Assembly: GCA_041666845.1 (NCBI GenBank) | Contig: JBAYGC010000004.1 | Coordinates: 7,965-71,964 of the forward strand | DNA: 64,000 bases | Direction of reading: 5' to 3' | Origin: Patescibacteria group bacterium | GTDB lineage: Bacteria; Patescibacteriota; Patescibacteriia; UM-FILTER-42-10 | Part shown: one piece after another, positions 1 through 31,005 of the stretch | Layout of the letters: each line of letters opens with the position of its first letter | Numbering within the stretch: position 1 is the stretch's first letter | The notes under the pieces: model-generated | What the model saw: the letters and a program-made list of their open reading frames with translations, nothing else | The model's database searches: none | Told to the model about the DNA's origin: nothing | Made by a program: the position numbers and the translations under genes

Positions 1-537
1 TCATCCGCATCATTATTCCAAACACCGATACATGTATCCTGTTCTGCCGCATTGACGACTTTGGTTGTTCCACAACTTACAGGCACAATATCACCGTCTG
101 TTTTTTTTGTCAGCTCGGTATCAAAATCGCATTTCCTGGTTGCCTCCCCGCCAATCGTGAGATCATCAACAACCGGAATAACCAACGGCTGCAGTGAAAC
201 AATATTGGGGTTTATGAAATTTAAAATCATATAGGAAGTTAGCGCTAATACTAATCCAAATACTGCGCTCATTATTTGTTCCTTGGCACCGCTGATGATG
301 GAAGTATTACCGGCCGCGGTAATCCATTTGTATCCGGCAATAACCATCATTGCCGCCGCCAAAATCCCGGCTGAGGTGACAAAAAATTCATAAAAAATCC
401 TGATATACTCCCCCAAATCATCCACTGACTTCGTGTCCCCAATCGGGATATTCAGCGGTATCGGTGCGGCAGAAACGACCAGTGGGAAAAATATTATACC
501 CAATGAAACGATAAATATTTTGAGAAATGACTTATTC
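1..537 (-). CDS. Partial (5' complete, 3' beyond window) secreted/membrane protein; candidate VirB2/TrbC-like T4SS pilin subunit
   Basis: Manual translation of the minus strand from ATG (rc of 535-537) gives MNKSFLKIFIVSLGIIFFPLVVSAAPIP (signal peptide). Two hydrophobic helices follow, joined by a short polar loop (SAGILAAAMMVIAGYKWITAAGN ... SAVFGLVLALTSYMILNFI), which is the hallmark topology of VirB2/TrbC pilins. It lies at the distal end of the VirB3/VirB4 operon. The ORF continues past window position 1. Confidence 0.3.
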
Positions 538-563
538 ATAATACTATAGTCAATAATTTTGAA

Positions 564-1724
564 TTATCTTTTTCTTTTACCTTTACCAATTTGTTTTTCA
601 ACTTCATTAAGCTTTTTTTTACGTTCATTGTTCTCCCTGACCGCTTTTATCCAGACATATAGTACAGTGATCGACCAGGTTGGTACCAAATCAAGAGTTG
701 GAATTATTTCAATAAGAGCAGCGATCCATAATAGTAATTTGATTTTCCATGTACTTCTGAATAATAGAAATATTCTAAGTGTAATTACCAAGAATATATC
801 AACAGTCCAGTCAACCCATGATAACAAGCTGAGCGTCAAAATGTCAGTCGCATCTTTAATTACCGCAAACAATAACGCAATAAAATAAGTTGAATCGCGG
901 TGATTATTAATTTGCTGTCTTAATCTAATACCAGTCTTTAATGCTTCAACAATTGCTTTTGGAAGAGAACCGCTTTCAGCAACATTAGCCAGTGATTCTA
1001 GGTTATTTTTTGTGATTTCGAAAGCGCTATCTTTTTCCTTTTCATTTTTTGATTCATTTCTCTGCTCGTCCAGTTGTTGTTCAGTATCATTTTCCTCTCC
1101 TTCTGAAATATTCAGTGGCTGTTCATCACCCTCGCCATCCTCTTCGTTTTCATCTGAATTTTCTTGATCGGACGGAATATTATCCAAATTTCTTTGACCG
1201 CTCAATCCGTTGCTGTATTCAGGGATTATCTGACCTGTCCTGGCCGGATTGTTTTGTCTTCTAATCTTTGACCTTCGCATCAGCCGATTCGCTCTCGATT
1301 GCTGTTCTTCATTAATGTCTTCCGGTAAAGCATTAGCGGGTAATTCTTGCACAGGAGAACCGAGATTGACTATTCCACGCGATACCTGTCTTTTCTTTTG
1401 ATACTCCTTTTTTTTGTTATTCAGTTCTCTTTTCCTGTCTTTTTCCGTCACCGCCTCTCTTGTATCTCCTCCACCCACTTGAGGCAGATCAGGTACCATG
1501 TCAGACGACTGGTCAGTATCCCTGATAATTACTTTAATTTTCGTTCCACCGTCATCAGTCGGCTGCGTACTGGCTGAAAATCCTTCTGAAGAAGCGGTAG
1601 AAGCCCCTGGTTGATTTACTGGATTTTGTGAAGAACTTGCCCCAGCATCCGCTGATTGGTCAGCATTATCAGCATTTACTTTAATATTATTTTCAGTGTC
1701 TTTAACTGTCTCAGATCTTTCCAT
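564..1724 (-). CDS. Hypothetical protein with acidic low-complexity N-terminal half and C-terminal multi-TM region
   Basis: 386-aa ORF, co-directional and tightly spaced with the VirB4 operon. C-terminal hydrophobic helices (FIALLFAVIKDATDILTLSLLSWVDW..LLLWIAALIEIIPTLDLV). No recognisable catalytic motifs. Confidence 0.5.
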   Translation of the reverse strand: MERSETVKDTENNIKVNADNADQSADAGASSSQNPVNQPGASTASSEGFSASTQPTDDGGTKIKVIIRDTDQSSDMVPDLPQVGGGDTREAVTEKDRKRELNNKKKEYQKKRQVSRGIVNLGSPVQELPANALPEDINEEQQSRANRLMRRSKIRRQNNPARTGQIIPEYSNGLSGQRNLDNIPSDQENSDENEEDGEGDEQPLNISEGEENDTEQQLDEQRNESKNEKEKDSAFEITKNNLESLANVAESGSLPKAIVEALKTGIRLRQQINNHRDSTYFIALLFAVIKDATDILTLSLLSWVDWTVDIFLVITLRIFLLFRSTWKIKLLLWIAALIEIIPTLDLVPTWSITVLYVWIKAVRENNERKKKLNEVEKQIGKGKRKR

Positions 1725-1747
1725 TTTTTTACACTAGATTAACTTAA

Positions 1748-2377
1748 TTACAGCCAGTCTGCCTCATTGACCTTCCATTCATTATTTTCTAAAATAAATT
1801 TCAATTTTATATTCTGGTAAATTATTTCTGAATCCTCATTTAATTTTGTCTGATTCCGTTGTGTCGATACTGTGAACTCCGCCTTGCCGGCGTCTTCATT
1901 TATCAAATCAGTCGTAATACTGAGCGCCCTAGTGGTTACGCCGTAATACGCGTCATCAGGGCTGGTTTTTGCCTGTTGCTCTGCCACATAATTTTCCGCC
2001 CACTTTTTTAAACTGGTCGACATGTATATTCCAAGCTTTGTAATATTCTCAAAGTTGCTGTCGGAAGAATAACTGCCGAATCTCTCGGCAAAGTTCCGCG
2101 CAATCGGCTTCAACAACGTTTCTACGCTGGCGTTAACGTCTGAAGTTGGGCTGTTTGTATTGGAAGGTGCGCTGTTTGAATTGGCATTACCGTTCGTATT
2201 TACAGCTTGGTTAGTATTAGCATTACTATTGGTTGTTGCGTTGATGTTTGTTGCCGAGTTGGTATTTGTCCCGTCTATGCGCTCTTTGGTAAAATAGACA
2301 ACGGCAAATATGACAATAGTAGCCACTATAATTAGTGACATTAATACAATTAACACTAATTTTAACTTTTTATTCAT
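1748..2377 (-). CDS. Membrane-anchored protein (N-terminal TM, N/T-rich linker, ~110-aa C-terminal globular domain); possible VirB8-like component
   Basis: 209-aa ORF immediately downstream of VirB4. N-terminal TM (LVLIVLMSLIIVATIVIFAVVYF) followed by an Asn/Thr-rich spacer. The VirB8-like assignment is inference from position and topology only. Confidence 0.45.
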   Translation of the reverse strand: MNKKLKLVLIVLMSLIIVATIVIFAVVYFTKERIDGTNTNSATNINATTNSNANTNQAVNTNGNANSNSAPSNTNSPTSDVNASVETLLKPIARNFAERFGSYSSDSNFENITKLGIYMSTSLKKWAENYVAEQQAKTSPDDAYYGVTTRALSITTDLINEDAGKAEFTVSTQRNQTKLNEDSEIIYQNIKLKFILENNEWKVNEADWL

Positions 2378-2396
2378 ACGGGTATTGATTTAAAAA

Positions 2397-4292
2397 TTAT
2401 GATTCTGTTTGGTTTGCCATTTCCGCTTCAAACTCTTTTTTGGCATCTTCAATTTCCAGAAGCTGACGCGGATCGGATGTAATCAGCTGGTCTTCAGTAT
2501 ATGAAGCGACAATTTTTATTGCTGCGTGTTTTGCGCCCGCAAAAAATATACCTTCGCCTAAACCTGATTCAATCAATAAATATTTTTCTCCTTCCGTCAG
2601 CATAAAAGTGTTTACCAGGAGATCAATGCCGGCCGGTGATTGTTTCAACAGAAGCTGCAGAGATGAGTTGGTAACAATCGCCTGCCCATACGGAGAGCGC
2701 AAAAAGTCATTAACATCCTGCGTGATTGTCGTGACTCCGAGGTAGTACTTACGGCAGCGTTTTACCAGCGCATAAATAAACTTCGCCGAATCTTCATTCT
2801 GCATCAGCCACCAGGCTTCATCAATAACCAGCACCCTTTTTTTCACTTCGGAACGGACAATATTCCAGATATAGTTAATAATCGTGTAGATTCCGATCGG
2901 TCGCAACTCATCCTCCAAATCGCGGACGCTGAATACCACTAGCTGATTCTGTGTATCAATATTGGTCGGGCTGTTAAACAACCCGGCAAACGTACCTTTG
3001 GTATATTTTTTCAATCTTTCCGACAAATCCGCTCCGCCTTCCATGCCCAATAATATGTCTTCAAAATCCTGCATGATCGGCGCCTCAATCTTGGTCAAAT
3101 CCGATTCTGCGGATATATCCTTCTTCGCATAGGTTTCGATCAAAGCACGGTCTACTAATGAGTCTTCAGCATGTGTCAGATCACCGAGCATTAACCGCAC
3201 CAAACCTTTAAGGGTAATTACCGCCGAACGAATGATATCCGCCGGTTTATCCCTGCCCGAAACCGGACGTGGCAGGTCAAACGGATTAATCTTGCTTTCG
3301 GAGTTCAATGAGATATCAATATAAGCACCGCCTACTGCATCGCTTAAATGTTTATACTCCATTTCCGGATCGATAATAATAACCTCCGTACCAAGCATTA
3401 AGCTTCTGAGTACCTCCAGTTTAACCGCGTAGCTTTTTCCGGCACCGGAAGTGGCAAATACGACCGTATTGGCGTTTTGCAGACTGAAGCGATCAAACAG
3501 GATTAAACTATTATTATGTCGATTGACACCGTACAAGATGCCATTGTCTGATGTAAGTTCGGAAGAAATGAAAGGAAAGGATGAGGCACAAGGGGATGTA
3601 TTCATATTAAATGTGATATACAACTCGTCATTACCGATCGGCAAAGTTGAATTGAACCCCTGTTCCGACTGGAACAAAACGCGCTTGGAATAAACAAGTT
3701 TGGAACCGAAGATGGACTCGATCCTTTCCGTAATCCTGTCGAGTTCCTTTGTATCGTCCGCATAGGCAGATATATATAAAGCATATTGAAAGAATTTTTC
3801 CGTGCCTTGGGTTATTTCATCCCGGAGCATTTCAATATCTTTCAATGCAGTCTCTCTTAGGGGATCACGCGGAGCGCCTTTTTCCGCATCAGAAAGTATC
3901 TGCGCTTCCAGGGCACCGACTTTGTTCTTTAACTGTTTCAGGATTGCCTCGGGTTTTACCGGGTAAAAATACATGGCGATATCCATCGGAATATTCAGAT
4001 TGATCACCGGAGCAAACCAGCCAACGCTGATATATCTGGGGTAAGTAACTACAAAGACAGTACTGACAAATTTGGTGCCGAGCTGGACATAACGCGCATC
4101 AACCTTAAACGCTGAAGGGGCTATTAAATCACGGACTGAAACCACACCGCGCTGGAAAGACCTTTCCGCTTCAAGAATTTCTTTTTCTTCCTGAGCGAGT
4201 GTCCTTTCGCGTTCAGCTTGCTTCAAGGAAGACGCTTCCTTTTTTGCCTCTTCTTCGTCTTTGATATCCGCCTTTTTGAATAGTTGAACCAT
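2397..4292 (-). CDS. virB4: VirB4/TrbE/CagE-family T4SS ATPase, C-terminal ATPase portion
   Basis: Walker A (VVFATSGAGKSY), Walker B-like (RVLVIDEAWWLM), and the FVVTYPRY / LIAPS motifs typical of VirB4/TraE-PrgJ family. 631 aa. Confidence 0.85.
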   Translation of the reverse strand: MVQLFKKADIKDEEEAKKEASSLKQAERERTLAQEEKEILEAERSFQRGVVSVRDLIAPSAFKVDARYVQLGTKFVSTVFVVTYPRYISVGWFAPVINLNIPMDIAMYFYPVKPEAILKQLKNKVGALEAQILSDAEKGAPRDPLRETALKDIEMLRDEITQGTEKFFQYALYISAYADDTKELDRITERIESIFGSKLVYSKRVLFQSEQGFNSTLPIGNDELYITFNMNTSPCASSFPFISSELTSDNGILYGVNRHNNSLILFDRFSLQNANTVVFATSGAGKSYAVKLEVLRSLMLGTEVIIIDPEMEYKHLSDAVGGAYIDISLNSESKINPFDLPRPVSGRDKPADIIRSAVITLKGLVRLMLGDLTHAEDSLVDRALIETYAKKDISAESDLTKIEAPIMQDFEDILLGMEGGADLSERLKKYTKGTFAGLFNSPTNIDTQNQLVVFSVRDLEDELRPIGIYTIINYIWNIVRSEVKKRVLVIDEAWWLMQNEDSAKFIYALVKRCRKYYLGVTTITQDVNDFLRSPYGQAIVTNSSLQLLLKQSPAGIDLLVNTFMLTEGEKYLLIESGLGEGIFFAGAKHAAIKIVASYTEDQLITSDPRQLLEIEDAKKEFEAEMANQTES

Positions 4293-4303
4293 ATTTTTCC
4301 TTT

Positions 4304-5017
4304 TTATTTTTTATCGTCCTCTTCCATTGAACTAGAATCTTCTTCCACCTGAAGCTTATCCAAATCAACTAACTGCTCCTGGCTAAAAACTTCTGGATTA
4401 TATGTATTGTAGAAAAGCTCTATGATACTCTGGGTATCCAGCTGTACGGATTTCAATCCGATTGAAGATAGACCGTCAGTCACATAATCCACCCTTTTGA
4501 ACAGTTCGGTCCGATATTTATCAAACTTTTTACGTTTTAAATGAATGACTGATGTTGGTGATAATACCTCCTTCAATCTGGCAAAATATTTTTTTTGTTT
4601 ATCCGAAATCGGTGAATATGGAACAATAACATAAAATCTCTTGCTCATAATATCCGCGATCTCCACCAGCTCTTTAATGTATTGCTGATACTCCGCCGTC
4701 TGCATCCTGAGCAGTTCATTGGACTGCTCTTTTTCTACTTTCTTCAGCCGGTCCAGGTATTCTTCAATATTCAATTTCCTGGATTGAATTACAATTTGAA
4801 TGGAAAAATCAAACGAATTAAGAAACTGGGTATAGCCCTGAATAACAGCCACCTGCTCATCTTCCGATTTCAATGCGAAATTGATAGAAGAAACCAAAAT
4901 AATCGCCCTTAGGGTTCCATCTTTCATCGCAACTACGTTATCTTTAATCTCCAAAATATCGAGATGACTCTGTGTGGAAGCTTTTGGTTTTTGTCCTGCT
5001 AGCTGGTTAGAATGCAT
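4304..5017 (-). CDS. VirB4 N-terminal (CagE_TrbE_VirB-type) domain encoded as a separate ORF (split VirB4)
   Basis: 237 aa. The motif DGTLRAIILVSSINFALKSEDEQVAVIQGYTQFLNSFDFSIQIVIQSRKLN resembles the VirB4 N-terminal domain. Stops 12 nt upstream of the ATPase ORF in a different frame. The downstream ORF has its own AAGGA ribosome-binding site 6 nt before ATG, so it appears to be a genuine two-ORF arrangement rather than an obvious frameshift. Confidence 0.55.
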   Translation of the reverse strand: MHSNQLAGQKPKASTQSHLDILEIKDNVVAMKDGTLRAIILVSSINFALKSEDEQVAVIQGYTQFLNSFDFSIQIVIQSRKLNIEEYLDRLKKVEKEQSNELLRMQTAEYQQYIKELVEIADIMSKRFYVIVPYSPISDKQKKYFARLKEVLSPTSVIHLKRKKFDKYRTELFKRVDYVTDGLSSIGLKSVQLDTQSIIELFYNTYNPEVFSQEQLVDLDKLQVEEDSSSMEEDDKK

Positions 5018-5037
5018 ATTTGTTTTATTATTTAAGC

Positions 5038-5475
5038 TTAAAAAACGCTGTCCTCATCTTCTTCTTTAAACGCCCCGCCGGTATCAACCACTAGGGATAA
5101 GCGGGTCAATTTTGAATTCGTTACAACCATCTTAGGCGGAACAACCGCTACGGTTTTGATCGGACCTTTATGAACAGATAACCCCTTTTCTTGGACTACT
5201 GTTTTATTCCAAATCTTAATTTTCGGTTTTCTGATAGTGTATACAATATTCAAAATAAAATAGTGGAACGCTTGTCCGTTAATTCTCGCGAAGGCAACAA
5301 TACCGGCAAATCCAAACGTGAATAAAGCAATAAATATAAACAGTACAAAACCGAAAATCTTATATTCGATGAAGATAATACCAAACGCAATCAGGAAAAT
5401 TACAAACTGTCTGACCGAAATAGGTCCGATGATTTTGTCCTCAACTTCGATAAACTGTGGCACCACAAAACGCAT
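5038..5475 (-). CDS. Small double-TM protein, VirB3/PrgI-like candidate
   Basis: 145 aa. Two adjacent TM helices (VIFLIAFGIIFIEYKIFGFVLFIFIALFTFGFAGIVAFA) and a position immediately upstream of VirB4 match the canonical VirB3-VirB4 order. Confidence 0.4.
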   Translation of the reverse strand: MRFVVPQFIEVEDKIIGPISVRQFVIFLIAFGIIFIEYKIFGFVLFIFIALFTFGFAGIVAFARINGQAFHYFILNIVYTIRKPKIKIWNKTVVQEKGLSVHKGPIKTVAVVPPKMVVTNSKLTRLSLVVDTGGAFKEEDEDSVF

Positions 5476-5480
5476 ATAGG

Positions 5481-6875
5481 CTAAAATCTTAATTGCTTAT
5501 TTAAATCACCCACCGCTTCAAATTCTTCATCCGTCAAATATGAACGGCCGTCTATTTTTCTGCTGGAAATCACTTCCTGTACCGACTTTCCTTTGTTCAT
5601 GCCCTCATTGCCGATATCAAGATAGATTTGATAGATTTCCGATTTTTTCCACGCCTGGATCGCTTCTGATTTCTTGGTAAATGATTCCTCCTCCAGTAAA
5701 TCAACCTTCTCCTTTATCTTTTCTATCGCCTGGTGGGGATTTCCTCCTAAGCGACGAAAATCAACCAAATTCAAACTTCTGATTTCCTCAATCGGCCCCA
5801 TCAATCTTGTTGGTGTTTTAATATCTACAATCTTCGGCCGGGCATCAAATTCCGGCAATGGCCGCTGGATTCTCGGCAGGATCGGAATTCTTCTTTCTAC
5901 CACAGGGACAACCGGAGTAACCGGCTGGCTAGATTTTGTTTTTATTTCATTTTCCAGTTCACTTTTATTTTGCTGATGTAAATTGAGCACCGCTTTTTTT
6001 ATCTGTTCATTGGCAACTGCTTTTCTCATCCTCTCCTGCTGCTCTTTCTCTTTTTCCGCCTCCTGCATTTTCATCCTTTGCCTCATTTCGATTTTCTTAA
6101 TCTCCCCTTCATCATGAAAACTCATTGCTTTTTCCGCAGTTATTTTTACTATCTGTTCAACTGTTGCCGGATCAAGTTCCAAACCACCGACTTTTTTTGA
6201 ACGAACCAACAATTCTCTCAGCTGAACGGATGTCCGGATATCCCGCAAACGCGATGTAATAAGACTTTCAAATCTTTTTTGCATCAGCTCATCGGAAAAA
6301 CTGACCCCAGCCTGAACTGCAATTTCTTTAACAACCGTACCATAATCAATCGCCCTGGCGGCTGATGATACTTCTTCGTTATGCATCCTTTTTACCTCTT
6401 CCTCATCCTCGACATCAAAGTAGAAACTGGCATTTACCCCTTTACCAGGGATCATTCTGCTGGCTAGCCCGGGCTTTAATTGGGAAGCCGTAATCTGCTG
6501 GACACCCTCTTGCTTTTCAGAAGCTGGTATGACCATCTTTACGTTCACCGGTTCTTGTTTTGGGACTGCCTGGGAAAAAGGAGCAGATTTCACCGTAGAA
6601 ATTGGAATTTTTTTTGTTGCTAATTGGGCAACCGCCTTTTGGATAACAGAAGGATCTATCGCGGCCGGCTTCGGGACACGGGCAGTATTTACCGGAGCAA
6701 CAACTGTATTTTCTTCGCCTAATAGTTTAGCACCATTAACATAGCTGAACTGACCTTTTTGGTCCTTAATCAAAATCCTGGCGCCTTTTAATATTTCCTT
6801 TTCCTCATTATCCTTTTTGCCGCTCGCAACATTCAAAGATATTGAGGGGTTACTTTTGTTTTTTTGATCCTCCAT
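5481..6875 (-). CDS. Hypothetical coiled-coil/charged protein, first structural gene of the T4SS-like operon
   Basis: 464-aa ORF. K/E-rich coiled-coil segment (MRQRMKMQEAEKEKEQQERMRKAVANEQIKK). Its start lies 1 nt downstream of the stop of the PPDK_N gene (…TAA A ATG…), indicating translational coupling. Confidence 0.5.
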   Translation of the reverse strand: MEDQKNKSNPSISLNVASGKKDNEEKEILKGARILIKDQKGQFSYVNGAKLLGEENTVVAPVNTARVPKPAAIDPSVIQKAVAQLATKKIPISTVKSAPFSQAVPKQEPVNVKMVIPASEKQEGVQQITASQLKPGLASRMIPGKGVNASFYFDVEDEEEVKRMHNEEVSSAARAIDYGTVVKEIAVQAGVSFSDELMQKRFESLITSRLRDIRTSVQLRELLVRSKKVGGLELDPATVEQIVKITAEKAMSFHDEGEIKKIEMRQRMKMQEAEKEKEQQERMRKAVANEQIKKAVLNLHQQNKSELENEIKTKSSQPVTPVVPVVERRIPILPRIQRPLPEFDARPKIVDIKTPTRLMGPIEEIRSLNLVDFRRLGGNPHQAIEKIKEKVDLLEEESFTKKSEAIQAWKKSEIYQIYLDIGNEGMNKGKSVQEVISSRKIDGRSYLTDEEFEAVGDLNKQLRF

Positions 6876-6876
6876 T

Positions 6877-7824
6877 TTATTTCAGTGTTGTTATTGGTCT
6901 TGACTGCGTAATATATATTTTATTTTTTTCTATCGCCCATTCAATATCCTGCGGATGCCGATAATGCTTTTCAATTGCTTCACAAACTGTTGCCAGCTTG
7001 ACGATTTGTTTGCCCGTAAGTTTCTGCCGCTCTTGTATTGCCTTTGGCACCTTAACTTTTTTTATTCCCTTAGTTCCGGCCTGGACAATCATTTCTTTTT
7101 GCTCGGAAATATTGACATCCAGGATTGCTTTCTCTTTTTTATCAAATACATACGTATCCGGTGTAATCTGTCCTGAAACTATCGCTTCACCTTGGCCATA
7201 ACCCGCTTCAATCACCATTTGATTCCGGTCATTAGTTACCGGATGGGCCGTAAAGGTGACACCGGACACTTCGGAATTAACCATTTTTTGCACCACCACC
7301 CCCACACTGACTTTGGTTTTATGCAGTTTCTTTTCAAAACGATAGAATATAGCACGCGGAGTAAATAATGAAGACCAGCATTTGCGCACAGCATCAGTCA
7401 AATTGGCACAAGTTACAAACAAATATGTTTCCAATTCCCCTGCCCAGGAAGCCACTGAGGAATCCTCTGCCGTTGCTGAGGAACGGACAGCAACGTATTT
7501 GGTCTTCAATTTGTTAAAGGATGTTATAACTTCCTTTGTAATATCTTCGGGAACGGTGAAATCATGAATCAAGTCCCGAATAGTATTGGATACCCGATCC
7601 ACACTGTTAATGTCATTCAGATTGACTTTCTTTAACAGTGCATCTATCTCAACATCCAGATCGGTTTCCGCTAAGAAACGCTCAAAAGTGCTGGAAAGTA
7701 TTACAAATCCAGGCGGAACTGGCATTTTTACCCTGGTCATCTCCCCCAGTTGTGCGCCTTTCCCTCCTGCTTCCGCTACACTCTTTCTATTTAATTGCGA
7801 AAAAGTTTTGGTAAATTTTGCCAT
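6877..7824 (-). CDS. Standalone PPDK_N-type ATP-grasp nucleotide-binding domain protein (PEP synthase / pyruvate-phosphate-dikinase / rifampin-phosphotransferase N-terminal domain only)
   Basis: 315 aa. Motifs GGKGAQLGEM, VAVRSSATAEDS, ASWAGELETY, FTPRAIFYR, VSVGVVVQKMV and DIEWAIE are diagnostic of Pfam PPDK_N. It has no swivel or PEP-binding domains. Confidence 0.8.
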   Translation of the reverse strand: MAKFTKTFSQLNRKSVAEAGGKGAQLGEMTRVKMPVPPGFVILSSTFERFLAETDLDVEIDALLKKVNLNDINSVDRVSNTIRDLIHDFTVPEDITKEVITSFNKLKTKYVAVRSSATAEDSSVASWAGELETYLFVTCANLTDAVRKCWSSLFTPRAIFYRFEKKLHKTKVSVGVVVQKMVNSEVSGVTFTAHPVTNDRNQMVIEAGYGQGEAIVSGQITPDTYVFDKKEKAILDVNISEQKEMIVQAGTKGIKKVKVPKAIQERQKLTGKQIVKLATVCEAIEKHYRHPQDIEWAIEKNKIYITQSRPITTLK

Positions 7825-7837: not shown

Positions 7838-7866
7838 TATTATAGCATAACTCATAATAATTCACA
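7838..7866 (-). promoter_or_regulatory. Candidate sigma70 promoter for the PPDK_N/T4SS operon (TTGTGA-17-TATAAT on minus strand)
   Basis: The reverse complement reads ttgtgaattattatgagttatgctataat, about 14 nt before the ATG at 7824. Confidence 0.35.
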
Positions 7867-7958
7867 ACATTACATACAGGCGCAATTACACCCCGCCTGC
7901 CTACGACCGAAGCCGTAGGCTACTGGCGGGCAGGAATCGCGCCTGTTCCCTGGCCATT

Positions 7959-7986: not shown

Positions 7987-8015
7987 GGTTGACAAATCTA
8001 CAAAAAAGGTATATA
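7987..8015 (+). promoter_or_regulatory. Consensus sigma70 promoter (TTGACA-17-TATAAT) driving GC-rich cassette 1
   Basis: TTGACA at 7987-7992, a 17-nt spacer, and TATAAT at 8010-8015. The ~190-nt conserved leader follows. Confidence 0.7.
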
Positions 8016-12217: not shown

Positions 12218-12362
12218 TTTATTGTTCACCCCCACACTGACTTTGGTTTCGTGTGGTTTCTTCTTATAACGATAGAAAATAGCACATAAAGTGAATAATG
12301 AAGACCAGTATTTGCACACATCATCAATCAAATTGGTTTTAGTAACAAACAAATATGTTTTC
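12218..12362 (-). pseudogene. Relic fragment of a PPDK_N ATP-grasp gene (duplicate of 7283-7432)
   Basis: About 85% nucleotide identity to the internal part of 6877..7824. It encodes …CKYWSSLFTLCAIFYRYKKKPHETKVSVGV…, which matches VRKCWSSLFTPRAIFYRFEKKLHKTKVSVGVV in the intact gene. It lacks both gene ends, and the ORF-track entry 12005..12352 is only this relic. Confidence 0.55.
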
Positions 12363-14374: not shown

Positions 14375-15883
14375 TTATTTAATCTTCAATATCCCGGTAT
14401 TACCATCTACTGCCACGATTTGTCCGTCTTTAAGAATCTTGGTTGTCATTCTCAAGCCAATAATTCCGGGAATTCCTGCCTCACGAGCTAGAGTGGCAGG
14501 ATGTGAAGTAATCCCCGGCCCTCCATCACAAATCAGCGCTGAAGCTATAGAAAGCACTTGAGTAAATACAGGCGTAGCTTGCAGAGTACATATAATATCT
14601 CCCCTTTTCACTTTATGGAATGAATCTGGATTAATCACAATCTTCACCGGCCCCTTGGCAACACCCGGTGAAACAGCCATACCTACTAATTCTTTTACGT
14701 TCTTGTCTACTTCCACAAATTTTTTATAATACTGTTTCGCTTTTTCTCCTGTAAACAAACTCGTTTTGCCATTTTCCATAATAAACGCACACAGCTTTAT
14801 TCTTTCATTAAGGATATTACTCATATCTAAATCTTTGGTAAGCATCGGTCTGACTTCTGCGGTTCGCAAATGACGCGCCTGGCGCATGGAAAGCCCGCCA
14901 CGCCGAGCTATTTCCATCAAAATCGGATCATAGTAATAAAGGGTCTGTGAGACAATGCTTTTCCGCAGTTCTTTATAGTAGATCCCTTCGCGCATTGTTT
15001 GAAATAAGCGTTGATGTTTTTTGTCAATTTTTAATTTATCTTGAATCTCATTTATCTTCGTGTCAATTTCTTTTTCCTTTATCAGCATTTTTTCTAATAT
15101 ATTCCCAGGATTTCTTTTTAGATGCTTTTTAAAACGAATGATAAAATCTTCGTATGTTAATACCGGATCGTCATAATCCCTAGTAATCCAAAAGAATTTT
15201 CTCTCATGATTCTTTATTAATCTCAATAACTCTTTATCTTTTTGAATAGAGCTAGTGGTATTTATGACATTTCCCATAAAATAATCTGCCCACTTTTTTC
15301 GCTTATTAATAATCTTGCATATTTTTAAAGCAGCTAAAGTTTCCTGCCTACTTACCATTGCTTTTGTTTCTGTAATAAGAGCATCCACATAATGCGCGGC
15401 TTTTTTTGTATCCGATTCTTTAGCGGCTATATACTCCTGCAAATATTTAAACAAATAGTTTTCTATAGCCAAAATCGGGAAATAGTGGGAATACACCTGT
15501 TTATAGCGTCTTTCGTATTCCTCGTGCAATCCCGCCAACCTGCTGTTACTTACTGTTCTAAGTTTTTTTAGATTATTATTCTTCTTCAGAAATCCATAGA
15601 AGCTTTTGGCAAACGCCTTCTGTGTTTTACCAAGCTTAATAAACATGTCCGGCTTTAGAAATACTATTTTTAAAACATGCTTCCCCACTCGTTCGTGATC
15701 GGCCTTATCAAAATACAAATACATATGATTCTCTTCAAACATCTGCACTATTCTTTTATAGGTAGTCCCGACTACATTTTTTAGCTCTTTTCCGATTGAC
15801 TCCATTGAAAGGTAATTTGGAAAAGGGCTCATCCGCTGCCTTTGGGATATTTGGAACCATACGATTTTTTTATTCTTGATCAT
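14375..15883 (-). CDS. PEP-utilizing-enzyme mobile (phosphohistidine swivel) domain protein, paralog 1; divergent ~390-aa helical N-domain
   Basis: C-terminal GGPGITSHPATLAREAGIPGIIG plus upstream GVAKGPVKIV…GDIICTLQATP match Pfam PEP-utilizers with the catalytic His. No ATP-grasp or PEP-binding TIM barrel. Confidence 0.8.
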   Translation of the reverse strand: MIKNKKIVWFQISQRQRMSPFPNYLSMESIGKELKNVVGTTYKRIVQMFEENHMYLYFDKADHERVGKHVLKIVFLKPDMFIKLGKTQKAFAKSFYGFLKKNNNLKKLRTVSNSRLAGLHEEYERRYKQVYSHYFPILAIENYLFKYLQEYIAAKESDTKKAAHYVDALITETKAMVSRQETLAALKICKIINKRKKWADYFMGNVINTTSSIQKDKELLRLIKNHERKFFWITRDYDDPVLTYEDFIIRFKKHLKRNPGNILEKMLIKEKEIDTKINEIQDKLKIDKKHQRLFQTMREGIYYKELRKSIVSQTLYYYDPILMEIARRGGLSMRQARHLRTAEVRPMLTKDLDMSNILNERIKLCAFIMENGKTSLFTGEKAKQYYKKFVEVDKNVKELVGMAVSPGVAKGPVKIVINPDSFHKVKRGDIICTLQATPVFTQVLSIASALICDGGPGITSHPATLAREAGIPGIIGLRMTTKILKDGQIVAVDGNTGILKIK

Positions 15884-16013
15884 GATACAATAATATGTTT
15901 AGTGCTTTATTAAATTGGCTGTAGCTTTTCATTAAGATAATTAACTTAATTTGGGATTTTTTGTTCATAGTTTGTTACTCGTTAGGAATATGAAGCTTTA
16001 GCTCCATTTGTAT

Positions 16014-17540
16014 TCAATAAACCTGAGAGTTTATATTCCTTTTAATGATGCCTTTTGTCGCGTCTACTTCCACCACGTCACCATCCTTGAATACTTTAGT
16101 GGCAACCTCTGTACCAATTATACATGGTATTCCCAATTCCCGGGATACTATTGCTGCATGGCAGGTAATACCACCAGCATTAGTAACAATGGCAGCTGCT
16201 TTATTCATAGCTGGCACCAATGATGGATTGGTGGAATAACTAAGCAAAATATCACCCTCATTGAATTTGTTCAAATCGCCAGTGGAATTAATTATCTTCA
16301 CAATGCCTTTGGCTTTGCCCGGATAGGCTACTTGACCTCTGATAATATCACTGTGTTTAATATTGGGCTTGGTCTGGACAAATAATTTTTTAAATTCTTT
16401 AGCCTTCGCACCAGTATAAAAGCCAACTCGACCATTTATTAAAATATGAGCTGAACATTGATACCGTTCATTTAATTGATTGTTAGTAAATGCTTTTTTG
16501 TTTTTTAACAAAATATCCTGATACTCAGCTCTAGTGACATAACGAGCCTGTAGTGGTGACCAATAAAAACGACTGGCAATTTCTTGATACCATCTGCCCA
16601 TAGCATAATTATGGTAATAAACCTGAACTTCTTTCCTAATTTCTTTTAAATAAGCTAGCTCCCGAACAATCTCGATTTGGTGCCATTCTTCTTTAGTAAA
16701 AAATGATTTTGCTTTGCTGTGAAACTTTTTAAGTTCAGCTAACCTTTTCTGTTTTATCCTTATTTCTTTATCAGGAAATATCCCCCATCGCCTTTTGACT
16801 AGATCAAGATAATATTCTGGACCAGCAGGCGGACCAACATAATAATATTGCAACCAGCCAAACTTTTCGGCCAGTCTTTTCAAATCGTTTTGAGCGTCAG
16901 TGGATAATTCTCCTATATTTTTACTATTTTTAAACTGTCTTAATAAATCTTTATTTTTCTTTGTTTTACTAATAAATTTTAAAACTGATAAATTTTCTTC
17001 GCTAATAGCGGTCGGCTTAGTAGAAGCAACTAAATTACTAAATACAATTTCCGGGTTACCTAATTTTTTTAACTTAAGCTCTAATTCTTGATATAAATTC
17101 ACCGAAAATTTAACCCTACTCATATCCAGTGTTTGCACTACCAAACCCCATTTCCAGCACTCAGCAAAAACATCATACAAGCCACAGTAAATTTTAAATA
17201 ACTGATTGTTTGTTTTCATCTTTAGATTGTCGGCCAATAAACGTCGACATAATATTTTCATCATTTTAAAAGCATCATAGTGGCCACGACAAAGCTGCTG
17301 AAAAAACTTTTTATCTTTAATTAACTTCTGACCAAAATAATCCCCTGCTTTTATAAACTGCGATTCTACGGGCCCCCAAGTCACAAAATCTTTTTCAAAA
17401 ACAAATAAACTCTCCAACTTTAATTTGTTGGCAGAAAGTTTTGGCAAATCTATCTTAAAATTTTTCTCATTCAAAATACACCAAGGAGTCAAAGCTACAT
17501 TATAATCCTCAACTAAAATGACAAATTTTCTTTTTGGCAT
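16014..17540 (-). CDS. PEP-utilizing mobile domain protein, paralog 2
   Basis: C-terminal GGITCHAAIVSRELGIPCIIG and AYPGKAKGIVKII…GDILLSYSTNP. Confidence 0.8.
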   Translation of the reverse strand: MPKRKFVILVEDYNVALTPWCILNEKNFKIDLPKLSANKLKLESLFVFEKDFVTWGPVESQFIKAGDYFGQKLIKDKKFFQQLCRGHYDAFKMMKILCRRLLADNLKMKTNNQLFKIYCGLYDVFAECWKWGLVVQTLDMSRVKFSVNLYQELELKLKKLGNPEIVFSNLVASTKPTAISEENLSVLKFISKTKKNKDLLRQFKNSKNIGELSTDAQNDLKRLAEKFGWLQYYYVGPPAGPEYYLDLVKRRWGIFPDKEIRIKQKRLAELKKFHSKAKSFFTKEEWHQIEIVRELAYLKEIRKEVQVYYHNYAMGRWYQEIASRFYWSPLQARYVTRAEYQDILLKNKKAFTNNQLNERYQCSAHILINGRVGFYTGAKAKEFKKLFVQTKPNIKHSDIIRGQVAYPGKAKGIVKIINSTGDLNKFNEGDILLSYSTNPSLVPAMNKAAAIVTNAGGITCHAAIVSRELGIPCIIGTEVATKVFKDGDVVEVDATKGIIKRNINSQVY

Positions 17541-17561
17541 ATTATTAAATACATAATCATA

Positions 17562-19028
17562 CTATTTATTCAACTTTTTTATAATTCCCCTATTCGCGTC
17601 CACTTCCACCAGATCGCCATCTTTTAATACTCTAGTAGCAACCTTTGTCCCAATTACACAGGGGACCTTCAATTCCCTAGCTACAATAGCGGCGTGACAA
17701 GTAATACCGCCAGAGTCAGTGATTATTGCACCGGCTTTTTGCATAGCAGGAACGACTTGAGGATTTGTGGATGTTGATACAAGTATATCTCCTTTTTTCA
17801 TTTTCGGTAGATCTAATACCTCGTCAATCCGTTTAACCACACCTTTTACTAAACCCGGATAAGCAGTATTTCCGTAAAGTACTTTGATTTTTGGATCAAC
17901 ACATAACGAACGTGAGATATCTTGAGAGATCCGCTTCACATTATTACCAGAAAGCACTTGATAATCAGTGCCTTTAAATAATACTACCGATTCCCTAATT
18001 CGTTCGTTCATTAATTCGGCACTGATATTGTTTTTCAGCAAGGCATCTTTCATTTCCTTTGGTGAAATCATGGATGCCTGGACTCTGGACAAATGATTTC
18101 TTTTGGCCAATTCTTGAATAAAATCATCCATTAGTAAGTGGGCCTTCTGGTTTAAGAATTTCCGTTCGAATTTCCAAAACCCCAGAGTTCGTAAAGCATG
18201 GATAACTCTTTTTTCCTGAACATTTAACCCAAGTTCCTGTTCCATGTTCTCCTGTTTTTTTGATAACCTATTTGCCGACTTGCCTTTTACAGCTAGCAGC
18301 TCCGTAACTGTCACTTTCTTGGCAGGAAGCAGGCTGAGCCGCTGTCGGATATCTTTTACTCCCCAAGCTGGTCCGTTATAACCATAACCGATCCAAGCGT
18401 ATTTCTTAAGATGATCAGCAACATCTTTTTTTGATAACTCATATCTCAGTTGTTTAAGCCGTAGCTTCAGCAAAGCCTTTTCCTCACGCAATATCACAGT
18501 TTCTCGGGGGGAAGAAGACAAAAGTTGAAAATATTCCCCGATTTTCTCATTACCTTTCCCTAATTTCCGACTAATGATCTGTTCCACTCGGTTGCTCAAA
18601 AGAGGTATTTCCATTTCAGCTGCGGTCGCCATTACACTATAAGTCATCATAGAAATAAATTTTTTCAGCCAATCCTGCCAGCGTGCTCTAAGTTCTTGAC
18701 CGCTCAATGCCGATAAATCACCTGAAAGCTTTTCTGCTGCTTCAAGCATCATCGGTACTTCTTTTTTATTTACTAACTCAATTTTTTTTAGCAAAATATC
18801 ATTTTGCTCTAGACGCTCTAGAATCTTTCTTCCAGGAACGGCTAAAGATCCTTCATTTGTTAGATAACTGAACGAGTTATCCTTATACCAACAGCCAATA
18901 ATACCATCCTCCACACCCACCTTTTTTGCTGCATATTGCGCACACCACCAGTACAGCATGGTGGGATAAAGATAAGCATTTTTATCATGGGCCAGTTCAA
19001 GCCATTTCTTTTGATATTGAATACTCAT
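17562..19028 (-). CDS. PEP-utilizing mobile domain protein, paralog 3
   Basis: C-terminal GGITCHAAIVARELKVPCVIG and AYPGLVKGVVKRI…GDILVSTSTNP. Confidence 0.8.
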   Translation of the reverse strand: MSIQYQKKWLELAHDKNAYLYPTMLYWWCAQYAAKKVGVEDGIIGCWYKDNSFSYLTNEGSLAVPGRKILERLEQNDILLKKIELVNKKEVPMMLEAAEKLSGDLSALSGQELRARWQDWLKKFISMMTYSVMATAAEMEIPLLSNRVEQIISRKLGKGNEKIGEYFQLLSSSPRETVILREEKALLKLRLKQLRYELSKKDVADHLKKYAWIGYGYNGPAWGVKDIRQRLSLLPAKKVTVTELLAVKGKSANRLSKKQENMEQELGLNVQEKRVIHALRTLGFWKFERKFLNQKAHLLMDDFIQELAKRNHLSRVQASMISPKEMKDALLKNNISAELMNERIRESVVLFKGTDYQVLSGNNVKRISQDISRSLCVDPKIKVLYGNTAYPGLVKGVVKRIDEVLDLPKMKKGDILVSTSTNPQVVPAMQKAGAIITDSGGITCHAAIVARELKVPCVIGTKVATRVLKDGDLVEVDANRGIIKKLNK

Positions 19029-19029
19029 A

Positions 19030-20508
19030 CTAGTTAATAATCTTTATATCCCCTTTTCTAGTATCCAGCTCTACCAAATCGCCGTCCTTTAGAACTTTTG
19101 TGGCAATCTTAGCACCGATAATACAAGGCTTTTTCATTTCTCGGGCAACAATGGCCGCATGTGAAGTCAATCCGCCTACATCCGTGACAAATGCCGCGGC
19201 TCTTTTCATTGCCGGCAGGAGCGAGGGGGTAGTAGCAACCGATACTAAGATATCACCATTTTTCACTTTAGCCATTTTTGATGCTTCATTTACGATTTTT
19301 ACTTTTCCCTTGGCGTAACCGGCTGAAGCTACTGTCCCATGAATAACAAAAACCTGCTGTATCTTTTGTTTTTCTCTTTTTACATTTTGTCTGACATAGT
19401 CTCTGGCCTTTTTGCCGGTAAAAATTATCTGCCGATCCTCGCTTAGCGCAATCCAAACACAATATTTACTTCGCTCCTGCAATACTTCCAGTGGAACCGC
19501 CTTTCTTGCTTTCAGCCAGTTAACTAGCTCTGACTTTGAACAATAATACAGCAATTTTTTCGGTACCTTAAACCTCCTTGATGCTACGGAAAGAATCTTT
19601 TCCCATTGAGAATATACACCGAATAATATTTCCATACGCAATCCCTTTAGATAAGTAAATGTCTGGGCAACATTGAAGAGATATTTTTCTTGATCATTTA
19701 GACCGAGCTTCTCAAACGTGGCAAGCTGTTTTTTCCGAAGCACAGTAGCATAAGTAAGCAGATCATTCAATTCTTTCTTTGCTTTCTTTTTATTTTTAAC
19801 CAGCTCTTTAATAGAAAGCTCCACTTCTTCAAATGCCATACGGGGACCAAGTTGTCCGAAACTTACCCAGTTCCATTTCTTGTAATAATTACCGACCTTC
19901 CTTTCCTCAACATTTCTTCCGGCAGTATTGACAATCATCTGCATGAGTTCAATTCTGGCTGTCTTTGAGGGTATAGGTCTTACTGGAGAAGAAAGTGTAT
20001 TCACTGTTTCAGGAATTGACACAGACTTCTTATTCTTCTCCACCGCCCTTTTTACTATTTTTTTTAGTAAGTGGGAATATTTTTGGAAATAGTGATCAGA
20101 AAACACCGGCACATAACCCCAAATACAAAGGTCATTAGCCAGTTTATAAGTTTTTTGTAAATAATTTGCCAACTGATGATTAGCCCATTGTTCCGGGTCA
20201 TCGTTTTCCACATCTCGGATTGATTTCAATAGAACTTTCGCTATATCCTCTGATTCTTTACGAACTCTTTCTACAAACCCAGGATTCTCCTGAATTTTAC
20301 CAATCAAGAAATCCGACCCCTTATCCCACGCAACATAGTCAACATAAAACAGAAGCTTTTGCTTTTCGTGTTCACAAAAAGTTCTCTCACCTACTTTACG
20401 GCCGTCCAATAGCTTCATCAATAGATTGCTCGGCCAAGCATTATGATTGGGTGAAATAGTTAGTGGACTTATGGAATATTCTTCGTGTGATAATACGTAT
20501 CTTTTCAT
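19030..20508 (-). CDS. PEP-utilizing mobile domain protein, paralog 4
   Basis: C-terminal GGLTSHAAIVAREMKKPCIIG. Its stop is 1 nt from the start of paralog 3. Confidence 0.8.
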   Translation of the reverse strand: MKRYVLSHEEYSISPLTISPNHNAWPSNLLMKLLDGRKVGERTFCEHEKQKLLFYVDYVAWDKGSDFLIGKIQENPGFVERVRKESEDIAKVLLKSIRDVENDDPEQWANHQLANYLQKTYKLANDLCIWGYVPVFSDHYFQKYSHLLKKIVKRAVEKNKKSVSIPETVNTLSSPVRPIPSKTARIELMQMIVNTAGRNVEERKVGNYYKKWNWVSFGQLGPRMAFEEVELSIKELVKNKKKAKKELNDLLTYATVLRKKQLATFEKLGLNDQEKYLFNVAQTFTYLKGLRMEILFGVYSQWEKILSVASRRFKVPKKLLYYCSKSELVNWLKARKAVPLEVLQERSKYCVWIALSEDRQIIFTGKKARDYVRQNVKREKQKIQQVFVIHGTVASAGYAKGKVKIVNEASKMAKVKNGDILVSVATTPSLLPAMKRAAAFVTDVGGLTSHAAIVAREMKKPCIIGAKIATKVLKDGDLVELDTRKGDIKIIN

Positions 20509-20553
20509 ATTTTTTCCCGTGAAGATGTTCTAAATATATCACATGTTGATTAA

Positions 20554-21627
20554 TTATAATTTTCTCACTATTCCTTTATTCGCGTCTACTTCCACCAGAA
20601 CACCGTCTCTAAAAACTTTCGTCGCAACTTTAGTCCCTACAATACAGGGCTTCTTCAATTCTCTTGCGGTAATAGCAGCATGAGACAGCAATCCACCGGA
20701 ATCAGTAATAAAACCGCCCGCCTTCTTCATTAAGGGCAAATACTCCGGCCTGGTCATGCTGGCAACTAAAATATCCCCTTTAGTGAAAGAAGTGATATTT
20801 TTCGGGTCATGAACAATTCTGACATGCCCGACGATTTTCCCCCTTTGTGCTACAGTTCCGTGGAGAACTTCAAATGACTGAACCTTATTAAGAATTGCCT
20901 CAACTTGCTTAAATTGGCGCCCGATAAAATGAATATTCTTATTGGTATTTGCAAACACAGCAAATCCAGGGTTGCGCTTCTGCAGTATCAATTTTGAAGG
21001 AAGTGGTTTGCCGTTCAGATAATCCTCAATTTCCTGGTATGTGCAACATAAGACTAATGATTGCGGCAATTTTTCTTTTTTTCCAATTTGTTTTGCCATA
21101 TTTTCCAGAAACTCTTCGGTTTCAGTCAGCACTGTTTCAGCATACACCCTGGCTTTCTCAAGTAATACAAAATATCTTTTAATCTGATTTTCAGACAATC
21201 CATCGACTATATATTTTACATTAATATGCGGCTGATAATATGCCACCAGCTTCTGAAAATATTCTTCAAATATTTTTGCAGTAAATATCGAACGGCTGTG
21301 AGTGCGAAGAAATTTCCTGATATGGTCCGACTGTTTTTTCAAATTATTGCAGATCTGAATTACACGCTTTGGATTACGGTTTACTTCATCAGCCAAATAG
21401 TGACAGAATTCCTCCCGATCTCTCTGTCGTGCCCATCCTTGGCTTTTTCCATTTTTTACTACTATTACAGTTTCGGGTAAGAAAGGTCTTCCGCGGAACC
21501 TGATCAAGCTGACATATTCCACTGCAAAGTGACTGCAGGAGAAAAGACTCCATTTTCCGGCCCAAATCTGTAACCAGTCCGGTCGGTTCAGTTCATCGGG
21601 TTTTATTTGGACAGTCTTTTTCATCAA
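20554..21627 (-). CDS. PEP-utilizing mobile domain protein, paralog 5 (shorter N-domain)
   Basis: C-terminal GGLLSHAAITARELKKPCIVG. 357 aa. Overlaps paralog 6 by 4 nt. Confidence 0.75.
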   Translation of the reverse strand: MMKKTVQIKPDELNRPDWLQIWAGKWSLFSCSHFAVEYVSLIRFRGRPFLPETVIVVKNGKSQGWARQRDREEFCHYLADEVNRNPKRVIQICNNLKKQSDHIRKFLRTHSRSIFTAKIFEEYFQKLVAYYQPHINVKYIVDGLSENQIKRYFVLLEKARVYAETVLTETEEFLENMAKQIGKKEKLPQSLVLCCTYQEIEDYLNGKPLPSKLILQKRNPGFAVFANTNKNIHFIGRQFKQVEAILNKVQSFEVLHGTVAQRGKIVGHVRIVHDPKNITSFTKGDILVASMTRPEYLPLMKKAGGFITDSGGLLSHAAITARELKKPCIVGTKVATKVFRDGVLVEVDANKGIVRKL

Positions 21628-28796: not shown

Positions 28797-29422
28797 TTTT
28801 TTATCCTACTTCCCCAGTTAATTGGATCTTTAAGATACTGTTTAATCGCTAAAGTATCTTCGAGATCAAAAATGTTGTGTTTAATACCAAAATTGGCAAT
28901 TTCTTGAAAAGTTACTAGATAGTGAATCTTTATTTTACTTGCTTTCTCGATTTTTTTTGCCAGTTCCTTTTTGACTATTGAAACTACTATAACATCTTCA
29001 ACTTTTGCCTTGTTTTTCCTAAGTACTTTGACGGCATTGTTAATATTGCTTCCAGTCACCATCATATCATCTATCAGTACCACTTTCTGGCCAGGCTTGA
29101 GAATCCCTTCAATTTGTTTTTTTGTACCATTTGTTTTTGGTTTTTTTCTGACGTAAATCATTGGTTTGACAAGTGCTCGGGCGAGAATACCGGCAAAAGC
29201 GATGCCTGCCGATTCATTTCCCGCAATTATATTATAATGCTTTGGCAGTAACCCCTTTAATTGATTAAAAACTATTGATAGTTCCTTGGGGTATGATAAT
29301 AGATTTCTATGGTCAAGATAAATAGGTTGATATAGCCCCGCTCCACCTAATAGCGGCTTTTTGTAATCACAATAAACATTTTGCGCCTTGTATAATGCCT
29401 TTATGATTTTTGGTTTGTTCAT
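28793..29422 (-). CDS. OPRT-like PRTase, paralog 2
   Basis: VVLIDDMMVTGSN PRPP motif. Overlaps neighbouring genes by 4 nt on both sides. Confidence 0.7.
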   Translation of the reverse strand: MNKPKIIKALYKAQNVYCDYKKPLLGGAGLYQPIYLDHRNLLSYPKELSIVFNQLKGLLPKHYNIIAGNESAGIAFAGILARALVKPMIYVRKKPKTNGTKKQIEGILKPGQKVVLIDDMMVTGSNINNAVKVLRKNKAKVEDVIVVSIVKKELAKKIEKASKIKIHYLVTFQEIANFGIKHNIFDLEDTLAIKQYLKDPINWGSRIKK

Positions 29423-30999: not shown

Positions 31000-31005
31000 T
31001 CTAAT

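Follow-up and report, generated by a model that had tools for sequence, protein, structure and literature searches.

A two-piece VirB4 and an ATP-grasp gene of predicted dikinase type in an ABY1-type type IV secretion locus of Patescibacteria

Patescibacteria carry a distinct type IV secretion system (T4SS) related to the MPF_FATA type (Quinonero-Coronel et al. 2025, PMC12102498). Its commonest component is TrsD, known from the pGO1 subclass, alongside PrgI/VirB3, VirB6 and VirB2-like pilins. Outside ABY1, VirB8 homologues could hardly be detected; the ABY1 loci include comF, recG and radA. Relaxases are mostly absent and were reported near virB4 in only 15 genomes (PMC12102498). For Southlakia epibionticum, T4SS genes including a TrsD homologue were described as essential (Wang et al. 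2023; PMC12102498). Established two-component dikinases are HpeHI, CreHI and PpsAB, homologues of rifampin phosphotransferase in split form (PMC12167813). Here, 64,000 nucleotides of a metagenome-assembled genome of a Patescibacteria group bacterium (GCA_041666845.1, locus tags WC693_, contig JBAYGC010000004.1, positions 7,965 to 71,964), called the window in the following, were examined regarding a T4SS operon that is headed by a PPDK_N ATP-grasp gene. Coordinates and strands refer to the window unless a related locus is named.

The locus is an already described chromosomal Patescibacteria T4SS of the ABY1 type, and its split VirB4 is genuine, but not new. We consider it probable that a vertically inherited, chromosomal MPF_FATA system of this type has its second half in this region, with PPDK_N as a separate dikinase subunit at the head of the operon. 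The open reading frames (ORFs) described for positions 1-7824 are all located on the minus strand. Eight genes follow each other from 7824 to 1, with intergenic gaps of 1, 5, 20, 11, 19, 23 and 24 nt. The first one encodes the 315-aa PPDK_N protein (7824-6877; PF01326, E = 4e-99), the second a soluble 464-aa protein without family match (6875-5481). A PrgI/VirB3-like protein of 145 aa (5475-5038; PF12666, 27.6 bits at a cut-off of 27, E = 4e-6) is followed by a TrsD/TraC-like protein of 237 aa, assigned by NCBIfam, fold and PF26593 as detached VirB4 N-terminal sub-domain (5017-4304), and by the 631-aa VirB4 ATPase (4292-2397; NCBIfam CD1110 VirB4, PDB 4ag5). The last three genes code for a bitopic 209-aa protein, VirB8-like according to its AlphaFold (AF2) model and Foldseek (2377-1748), an acidic 386-aa protein with three predicted C-terminal transmembrane (TM) segments and no family match (1724-564), and a VirB2-like T4SS_pilin cut at the window edge (539-1; PF18895, 26.7 bits at a cut-off of 26.6, E = 6e-6). 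This gene order had been read from the letters in a first-pass annotation, and every ORF named there was found on the minus strand. Its description as T4SS-like is supported by profile, PDB and fold matches for VirB4, PrgI, TrsD, the VirB8-like protein and the pilin. In general, the earlier observation is confirmed, and its interpretation is partly supported.

The VirB4 motor protein is encoded in two pieces. In the translation of the 631-aa protein a Walker A motif (ATSGAGKS) and a Walker B motif (VLVIDEAW) are present, and PF19044/PF12846 were matched. Alignment with the VirB4 C-terminal domain of PDB 4ag5 gave E = 5e-49, with TrwK 5e-7. Although the first ~150 profile positions are missing, the score against NF045971 (CD1110-family VirB4) was 369.2 bits, above the cut-off of 325. 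The protein covers positions 155-729 of 752 in the CD1110 VirB4 profile and 263-892 of 894 in VirB4_plasma, which takes in the latter half of the N-terminal domain. The complete N-terminal domain is not on this polypeptide; positions ~12-140 are found on the separate 237-aa protein, which covers 12-138 of 752 in CD1110 and 98-256 of 894 in VirB4_plasma (2e-11). According to these complementary coordinates, the 237-aa protein is the first N-terminal sub-domain only, and the 631-aa protein comprises the remaining N-domain and the ATPase. Thus, the first-pass term "VirB4 N-domain" was right in naming an N-terminal piece of VirB4, but too wide, because only the first ~140 profile positions and not the whole domain are covered. 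Matches of the 237-aa protein to TIGR00929 and to TrsD/TraD NF041427 (3e-6) were likewise all at N-terminal profile positions. The NF041427 match reached 27.1 bits, below the curated cut-off of 200, and marks a remote relative of staphylococcal TrsD. A Pfam scan gave no match for this protein, and its precomputed annotation is PF26593 (TraC-like). With the AF2 model of TrsD, the 14 best fold matches in the PDB were all TrwK/VirB4 of R388 (E = 2.5e-3 to 3.5e-2); the next, unrelated match had E = 0.8.

The comparison with related VirB4 loci, which the first-pass annotation had proposed, was carried out with 80 species-representative loci of Kerfeld-, Falkow-, Uhr-, Buchanan- and Veblenbacteria, i.e. 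ABY1. Both TrsD and VirB4 were present in 74 of them. They were separate ORFs in all 74 loci, and no fused gene was detected. In the window and, with few exceptions, in the related loci, the three genes run PrgI-TrsD-VirB4. In total, 5795 proteins homologous to the 237-aa protein were found; the best 120 of these are all from Patescibacteria, 207-243 aa long and 62-100% identical. The split of VirB4 is ancient, stable and genuine. It is not peculiar to this genome; it equals the published arrangement of TrsD and VirB4 with TrsD as the commonest T4SS component of the Patescibacteria (PMC12102498). The arrangement is published and phylum-wide, so the locus is another example and not a new kind.

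Further T4SS components were characterized. The PrgI/VirB3-like protein has a hydrophobic segment at residues 43-61, and its position before TrsD is conserved in related loci. The AF2 model of the 209-aa protein consists of a helix (residues 3-30), a low-complexity linker and an alpha+beta NTF2-like domain (85-209), with pLDDT > 90 for the C-terminal domain. Foldseek matches in the PDB were CagV/VirB8 (7e-6), TrwG/VirB8, PrgL (2e-4), Brucella VirB8, TraH and TcpC. With the family profile, PrgL was the only match among PDB sequences and was not significant (E = 1.7). Judged by this model, the protein is VirB8-like, with a predicted N-terminal TM helix and an NTF2-like extracytoplasmic domain. 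The fold matches to VirB8 proteins therefore show that the earlier guess of an NTF2/VirB8 candidate was right. The 386-aa protein, for which scans of Pfam and NCBIfam gave no family match, has an acidic N-terminal region and is poorly conserved; BLAST detected it here in only two other loci (L005 and L051). For the pilin, NCBIfam Mbov_0395 (pilin-like) was matched with 6e-5. It has a Cys-rich C-terminal extension, and its full length of 315 aa was seen in the related locus L001. Downstream of the pilin, L001 encodes a 411-aa protein, DsbA, RadA (L001 17512-18858) and RecG (L001 18860-20714).

The 464-aa protein belongs to a family with 2400 representatives at 50% identity clustering, always matched at the C-terminus. 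A member lies upstream of PrgI in 74 loci and is the first gene of the ABY1 T4SS core. The N-terminus is variable and of low complexity; the conserved C-terminal domain of ~120 aa contains the motif GPVEEL..L.DFRRLG...AW..SP...LY. No match in Pfam, NCBIfam or the PDB and no TM segment were found for the 464-aa protein, and nothing significant resulted from its family profile against PDB sequences. Fusions to PPDK_N or swivel domains were not detected among the 10 longest (671-980 aa) of the top 150 members, none of which has a Pfam domain. It is an uncharacterised T4SS-associated family specific to the candidate phyla radiation (CPR), always located before PrgI.

Clustering of the upstream genes from 65 loci and tblastn identified three further families, c4, c0 and c2, which are the immediate upstream neighbours of the 464-aa gene in the majority of the other ABY1 loci, those without PPDK_N. 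In the window they are encoded on the minus strand as a giant secreted protein of 3114 aa (c4, 40817-50161), a protein of 1220 aa with at least seven TM segments (c0, 37138-40800; ~950-1200 aa in PPDK_N-negative loci) and a protein of 449 aa (c2, 35758-37107; 420 aa in PPDK_N-negative loci). None of the three matched Pfam or NCBIfam. They lie ~29 kb from the 464-aa gene. With the c4/c0/c2 genes at 35758-50161, the T4SS cluster is therefore split here by an island of phosphotransfer genes. This ~29-kb stretch contains swivel-domain paralogs, five phosphoribosyltransferase (PRTase) paralogs, an APH-like kinase, three His-phosphatase-like genes, a two-component system and a tRNA-Arg.

PPDK_N is best read as the predicted ATP-binding subunit of a two-component (RPH/HpeI-like) small-molecule dikinase, and not as an orphan. 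It covers only positions ~1-315 of the ~870-aa NCBIfam models of phosphoenolpyruvate (PEP) synthase and RPH, i.e. the ATP-grasp third. In the PDB, RPH 5hv6 (3e-57) and the 387-aa entry 9goj (6.5e-48) were matched. The top 120 homologues are all 308-350 aa long. A truncated PEP synthase pseudogene was considered and rejected; the ~312-aa protein is conserved with 64-100% identity in more than 120 clusters. Among Patescibacteria, PPDK_N of this standalone form is frequent and its conservation is high.

Upstream of PPDK_N and on the same strand, seven swivel paralogs are encoded, with a single ATP-grasp gene for all seven in the window. Six divergent paralogs of 502, 508, 488, 492, 357 and 541 aa form an array at 14375..23249 (PF00391, E = 1e-14 to 4e-26). 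The seventh lies at 29419..31005 (PF00391, E = 4e-24); where exactly it starts is uncertain, as the predicted ORF extends into the tRNA-Arg at 31006-31080. In all seven paralogs, the PEP-utilizers domain is C-terminal, and the phospho-histidine motif GGxT[SC]H is intact in the six array paralogs checked. The paralogs are mutually 24-48% identical, and the NCBIfam matches of the array are to C-terminal parts of the RPH/PRK06241 models. A PEP/pyruvate-binding domain (PF02896) was found neither in PPDK_N nor in any swivel paralog, and NCBIfam scores were far below the equivalog cut-offs. From these features, the swivel paralogs are likely the phospho-carrier and substrate subunits served by PPDK_N.

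The pairing was also observed in a metagenome sample anchored on PPDK_N, with 43 loci having at least 3 kb on both sides and 60 having enough downstream sequence. Swivel paralogs flank PPDK_N in 37 of the 43 loci (86%). They were further found in the flank of 12-13 of 15 PPDK_N-positive T4SS loci, and T4SS loci without PPDK_N are also without swivel genes. Individual contexts of PPDK_N range from swivel arrays near dnaA to loci with neither swivel genes nor a T4SS. A free-standing ATP-grasp module recruited to the translocation machine was not supported; with swivel partners in 86% of the sampled loci, PPDK_N is read as a dikinase subunit.

The linkage of PPDK_N to the T4SS was investigated from both sides. 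In a TrsD-anchored set, 65 ABY1-type T4SS loci were informative for the gene upstream of the 464-aa gene. PPDK_N occupies this position in 15 of them (23%), and two further adjacency loci (L086 and L089) were found from the PPDK_N side. Among the PPDK_N loci, only 9 of 60 (15%) have a T4SS downstream. The junction in the window reads CTG AAA TAA A ATG, which confirms the distance of 1 nt between PPDK_N stop and start of the 464-aa gene, and a tight junction recurs in other species; the gaps from PPDK_N to the next gene are mostly 26 nt or shorter (about 13 loci read with confidence). PPDK_N-positive loci are placed in at least three clades of a neighbour-joining tree of TrsD and VirB4. Furthermore, pairwise identities of PPDK_N correlate with those of VirB4 (Spearman 0.43, Mantel p ~ 8e-4). 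Distribution over at least three clades and co-divergence with VirB4 therefore make the linkage look old and co-inherited, with many losses. Hence, the adjacency is an old, but minority arrangement. The unusual association noted earlier is real and recurrent as an adjacency; it is confined to a minority of ABY1 T4SS loci and of PPDK_N loci, and no fusion among the scanned long members of the 464-aa family points to a biochemical tie. Co-transcription of PPDK_N with the T4SS genes is plausible.

A functional tie between PPDK_N and the T4SS appears rather unlikely. It could take two forms: the dikinase/PRTase island might trap small molecules or nucleotides acquired by the T4SS, or PPDK_N might modify a T4SS component, e.g. 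the 464-aa protein. Such a role in the T4SS programme would fit the 1-nt coupling and an adjacency that is kept across deep divergence, with PPDK_N co-diverging with VirB4 (PPDK_N is 53-67% identical between clades). The interruption of the window T4SS by seven swivel, five PRTase, one APH-like kinase and three phosphatase-like genes points in the same direction, as does the scavenging of host nucleic acid by Patescibacteria. On the other hand, PPDK_N is absent from about 77% of the ABY1 T4SS loci, about 85% of the PPDK_N loci have no T4SS downstream, and Patescibacteria exist with a T4SS but with PPDK_N elsewhere. Moreover, in the published survey of T4SS neighbourhoods, PPDK_N is never named in the main text and two text supplements (PMC12102498). 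Trapping or modification by PPDK_N as part of the T4SS programme is thus given little credence, and a dikinase subunit that is separate from the secretion system is preferred.

Several points weigh against this preferred reading. Three loci, L009, L065 and L086, keep PPDK_N at the 464-aa gene without any swivel gene in the 7-10 kb upstream; this persistence also speaks for a role of PPDK_N in the T4SS programme and hints at more than chance synteny. The neighbour-joining tree from which the patchy distribution was read carries no support values. For the ~400-aa N-terminal regions of the swivel paralogs no sequence match to solved structures was obtained. With a pLDDT of 64 the TrsD model is only moderate, and comparison with VirB4 gave low TM-scores (0.34-0.42). 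The polytopic c0 protein has a VirB6-like topology, and its assignment was made from topology alone. A candidate promoter for PPDK_N and the T4SS operon is a bare consensus match: the promoter-like site (TTGTGA, 17 nt, TG-TATAAT; 7867..7839, minus strand), 15 nt upstream of the PPDK_N start, has 10 of 12 consensus matches and an extended -10 TG. It is a lead only, because consensus matches in this region are no commoner than in shuffles.

The export of DNA by a conjugative element, either a plasmid or an integrative and conjugative element (ICE), was considered as a further explanation of the operon. VirB4, TrsD, PrgI and the VirB8-like protein are homologues of monoderm conjugation proteins, and the best NCBIfam matches are ICE and conjugal-transfer families. 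However, neither a relaxase nor a VirD4/TcpA-type coupling protein was found among the scanned ORFs of the 64-kb window or in the L001 downstream flank, with small ORFs not scanned exhaustively. The same chromosomal context with RadA, RecG and c0/c2/c4 occurs in 80 species, and class-wide protein identities of 60-77% are consistent with vertical descent. The published rarity of relaxases near virB4, mentioned above, also argues against conjugation. We regard a conjugative element as very improbable and a vertically inherited chromosomal T4SS as the better explanation. A ComM/YifB-like Mg-chelatase ATPase is encoded at 62148-63668 (minus strand), and a short way past the start of the window RadA and RecG are found. 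Therefore, DNA-processing genes cluster around this T4SS, as reported for ABY1.

The junction of the two VirB4 pieces was read directly. The TrsD stop codon TAA (4306-4304) is followed by the 11-nt spacer AAAGGAAAAAT (4303-4293, minus strand) and the VirB4 start ATG at 4292. The spacer contains AAGGA at 4302-4298, placed 5 nt ahead of the ATG. Relative to the 237-aa frame, VirB4 is offset by 2, equivalent to -1. Both the different frame and the own AAGGA of the ATPase gene had been described in the first-pass annotation and were found as described. With this geometry, a programmed -1 ribosomal frameshift at A AAA AAT ahead of the TrsD stop could yield some fused TrsD-VirB4. The A AAA AAT run is present (4293-4312, minus strand), and slippage on it would give ...KK-IKRKN-MVQ..., in frame with VirB4. 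This geometry fits the window only. The near-identical relatives L005 (TrsD and VirB4 100% identical to the window proteins) and L006 (92% and 86%) have spacers of 12 nt, AAGGA included, and VirB4 is set there in frame 0 behind the stop. Programmed frameshifting was rejected for this reason. It is also at odds with the 74 loci, where the relative frames are evenly spread (22/30/22) and the spacers extend from -17 to +502 nt (median 8), and with the own Shine-Dalgarno sequence and ATG of VirB4; its probability is seen as slight at most. The junction (GATAAAAAATAAAAAGGAAAAATATG) is A-rich and prone to homopolymer errors, but a frameshift from sequencing or assembly, which the first-pass annotation had already argued against, or a gene turned pseudogene only recently has next to no probability, since the identical 237-aa protein is present in independent JGI and NCBI assemblies, the two ORFs recur in all 74 related loci in every frame relation and with variable spacers, and the protein matches the published TrsD family and has thousands of homologues.

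For this T4SS, a mode of action can be proposed by analogy with known systems. PrgI would anchor the motor at the membrane. TrsD, as the first N-terminal sub-domain, is placed near VirB3 and the membrane in one-piece VirB4 and may have the same position in the two-piece motor, to which the 631-aa protein would bring the remaining N-domain and the ATPase. The remaining parts of channel and pilus would be provided by the VirB8-like 209-aa protein, together with the pilins and the VirB6-like polytopic protein encoded ~30 kb upstream. Host interaction and transfer of macromolecules, probably nucleic acid, are the likely functions, rather than conjugation. PPDK_N would not be a part of the T4SS. 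It is expected to move phosphate from ATP onto the swivel histidine of its partners, represented here by seven paralogs, and each partner may hand the phosphate to its own small-molecule substrate. In this lineage, PPDK_N has presumably been at the head of the T4SS operon for long and is probably co-transcribed and translationally coupled; expression of the T4SS would then bring dikinase capacity with it.

Further features were observed in the island and its surroundings. Five tandem type-I PRTase paralogs and an APH/MTR-kinase-like gene are located at 28125-29422, 31235-33405 and 34507-35553 on the minus strand, interleaved with the seventh swivel paralog and the tRNA-Arg(CCG) at 31006-31080. 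The PRTase paralogs are orotate/adenine-PRTase-like, all under the family cut-offs. Their assignment as ComF was rejected; the match to TIGR00201 (comF) reached only 25 bits. Between the swivel array and a GHL15-like protein of 848 aa, a type IV pilin-like gene (N_methyl motif, 169 aa) and a gene for a 548-aa FG-GAP/fn3 protein were found (23313-25480, minus strand).

A segmental duplication of ~1 kb was detected (7989-8947 and 12381-13327, in addition 7297-7430 and 12227-12360) with 74-94% identity. The second copy includes a degenerate PPDK_N fragment (residues ~129-176; 12227..12360, minus strand). The duplication holds paralogous genes of 218 and 230 aa with 67% amino acid identity, for which an RHS motif suggests the histidine-phosphatase type. 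A perfect sigma-70 consensus (TTGACA, 17 nt, TATAAT) is located at 7989-8017 on the plus strand before the divergent 218-aa gene. The segment 7989-8184 is duplicated with 92% identity at 12381-12576 before the 230-aa paralog. The copies bracket a block of ~3.3 kb (8947-12227) with a histidine kinase, a response regulator and three small membrane ORFs; in the close relative L005, the histidine-kinase/response-regulator block is located elsewhere. Outside the island, the leucyl-tRNA synthetase gene (53772-56816, minus strand) has an apparent insert of the Ser_hydrolase/alpha-beta hydrolase type (aa 252-431, PF06821, E = 5e-19) between catalytic core and editing domain.

In about a fifth of the ABY1 lineages, PPDK_N has been the first T4SS cistron over long divergence. 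T4SS genes are essential in the only Patescibacterium tested (Southlakia), so that a co-regulation of host-contact machinery and small-molecule phosphorylation is a testable hypothesis. Speculatively, in some ABY1 a shared ATP-grasp subunit under T4SS control could, together with the swivel/PRTase/phosphatase island, acquire host nucleobases or metabolites by the T4SS and trap them by phosphorylation. The same tentative proposal includes that the design of a single ATP-grasp subunit shared by as many as seven divergent swivel subunits, which is widespread in CPR genomes, represents an undescribed expansion of the two-component dikinases. If true, this design would be an expansion independent of the T4SS link, in organisms with almost no metabolism. 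The conserved standalone PPDK_N beside divergent swivel arrays points to a large unstudied family of two-component dikinases in bacteria with supposedly minimal metabolism. No paper on PPDK_N-linked swivel arrays in CPR was found in a literature search.

Compared with the MPF_FATA-like T4SS of ABY1-class Patescibacteria, the locus has PrgI/VirB3, TrsD, VirB4, a VirB8-like protein and VirB2-like pilins in common. It is likewise chromosomal and conserved, with radA and recG alongside and no relaxase or type IV coupling protein found nearby. In contrast, a PPDK_N gene heads the operon here and in ~23% of the ABY1 loci, and ~29 kb of phosphotransfer genes part the operon of the window from c4/c0/c2. 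Neither the PPDK_N operon head nor the 29-kb interruption is mentioned in the main text or two text supplements of the published survey (PMC12102498).

With TrwK of R388 (PDB 7o41, 8rtb), the similarity extends to both pieces of VirB4: the TrsD model matches TrwK chains by fold, and the 631-aa protein aligns with TrwK residues 445-741. TrwK is a single chain of ~820 aa from a diderm T4SS with outer-membrane core complex, whereas the first sub-domain is a separate polypeptide in the window. A small homologue of the VirB4 N-terminus beside the VirB4 ATPase is also known from TrsC-TrsD-TrsE of pGO1/pSK41, the MPF_FATA prototype with separate TrsD. The gene order VirB3-like, TrsD, VirB4 corresponds to trsC-trsD-trsE of pGO1. 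Unlike the window, the conjugative plasmid pGO1 carries a relaxase and the coupling protein TrsK, and the TrsD of the window is only remotely similar.

For the predicted dikinase, HpeHI, CreHI and PpsAB (phenylphosphate synthase) are the closest comparison (PMC12167813, PMC4844700). These systems also consist of a standalone ATP-grasp subunit of ~315-340 aa and a separate subunit that combines a substrate-binding region with a swivel histidine domain (GGxT[SC]H) at its C-terminus. In the window, however, one ATP-grasp gene would serve up to seven highly divergent swivel subunits. It would do so in a reduced genome of the ~1-Mb class without aromatic-catabolism context, and the ATP-grasp gene is located apart from the swivel array and is probably co-transcribed with the T4SS operon.

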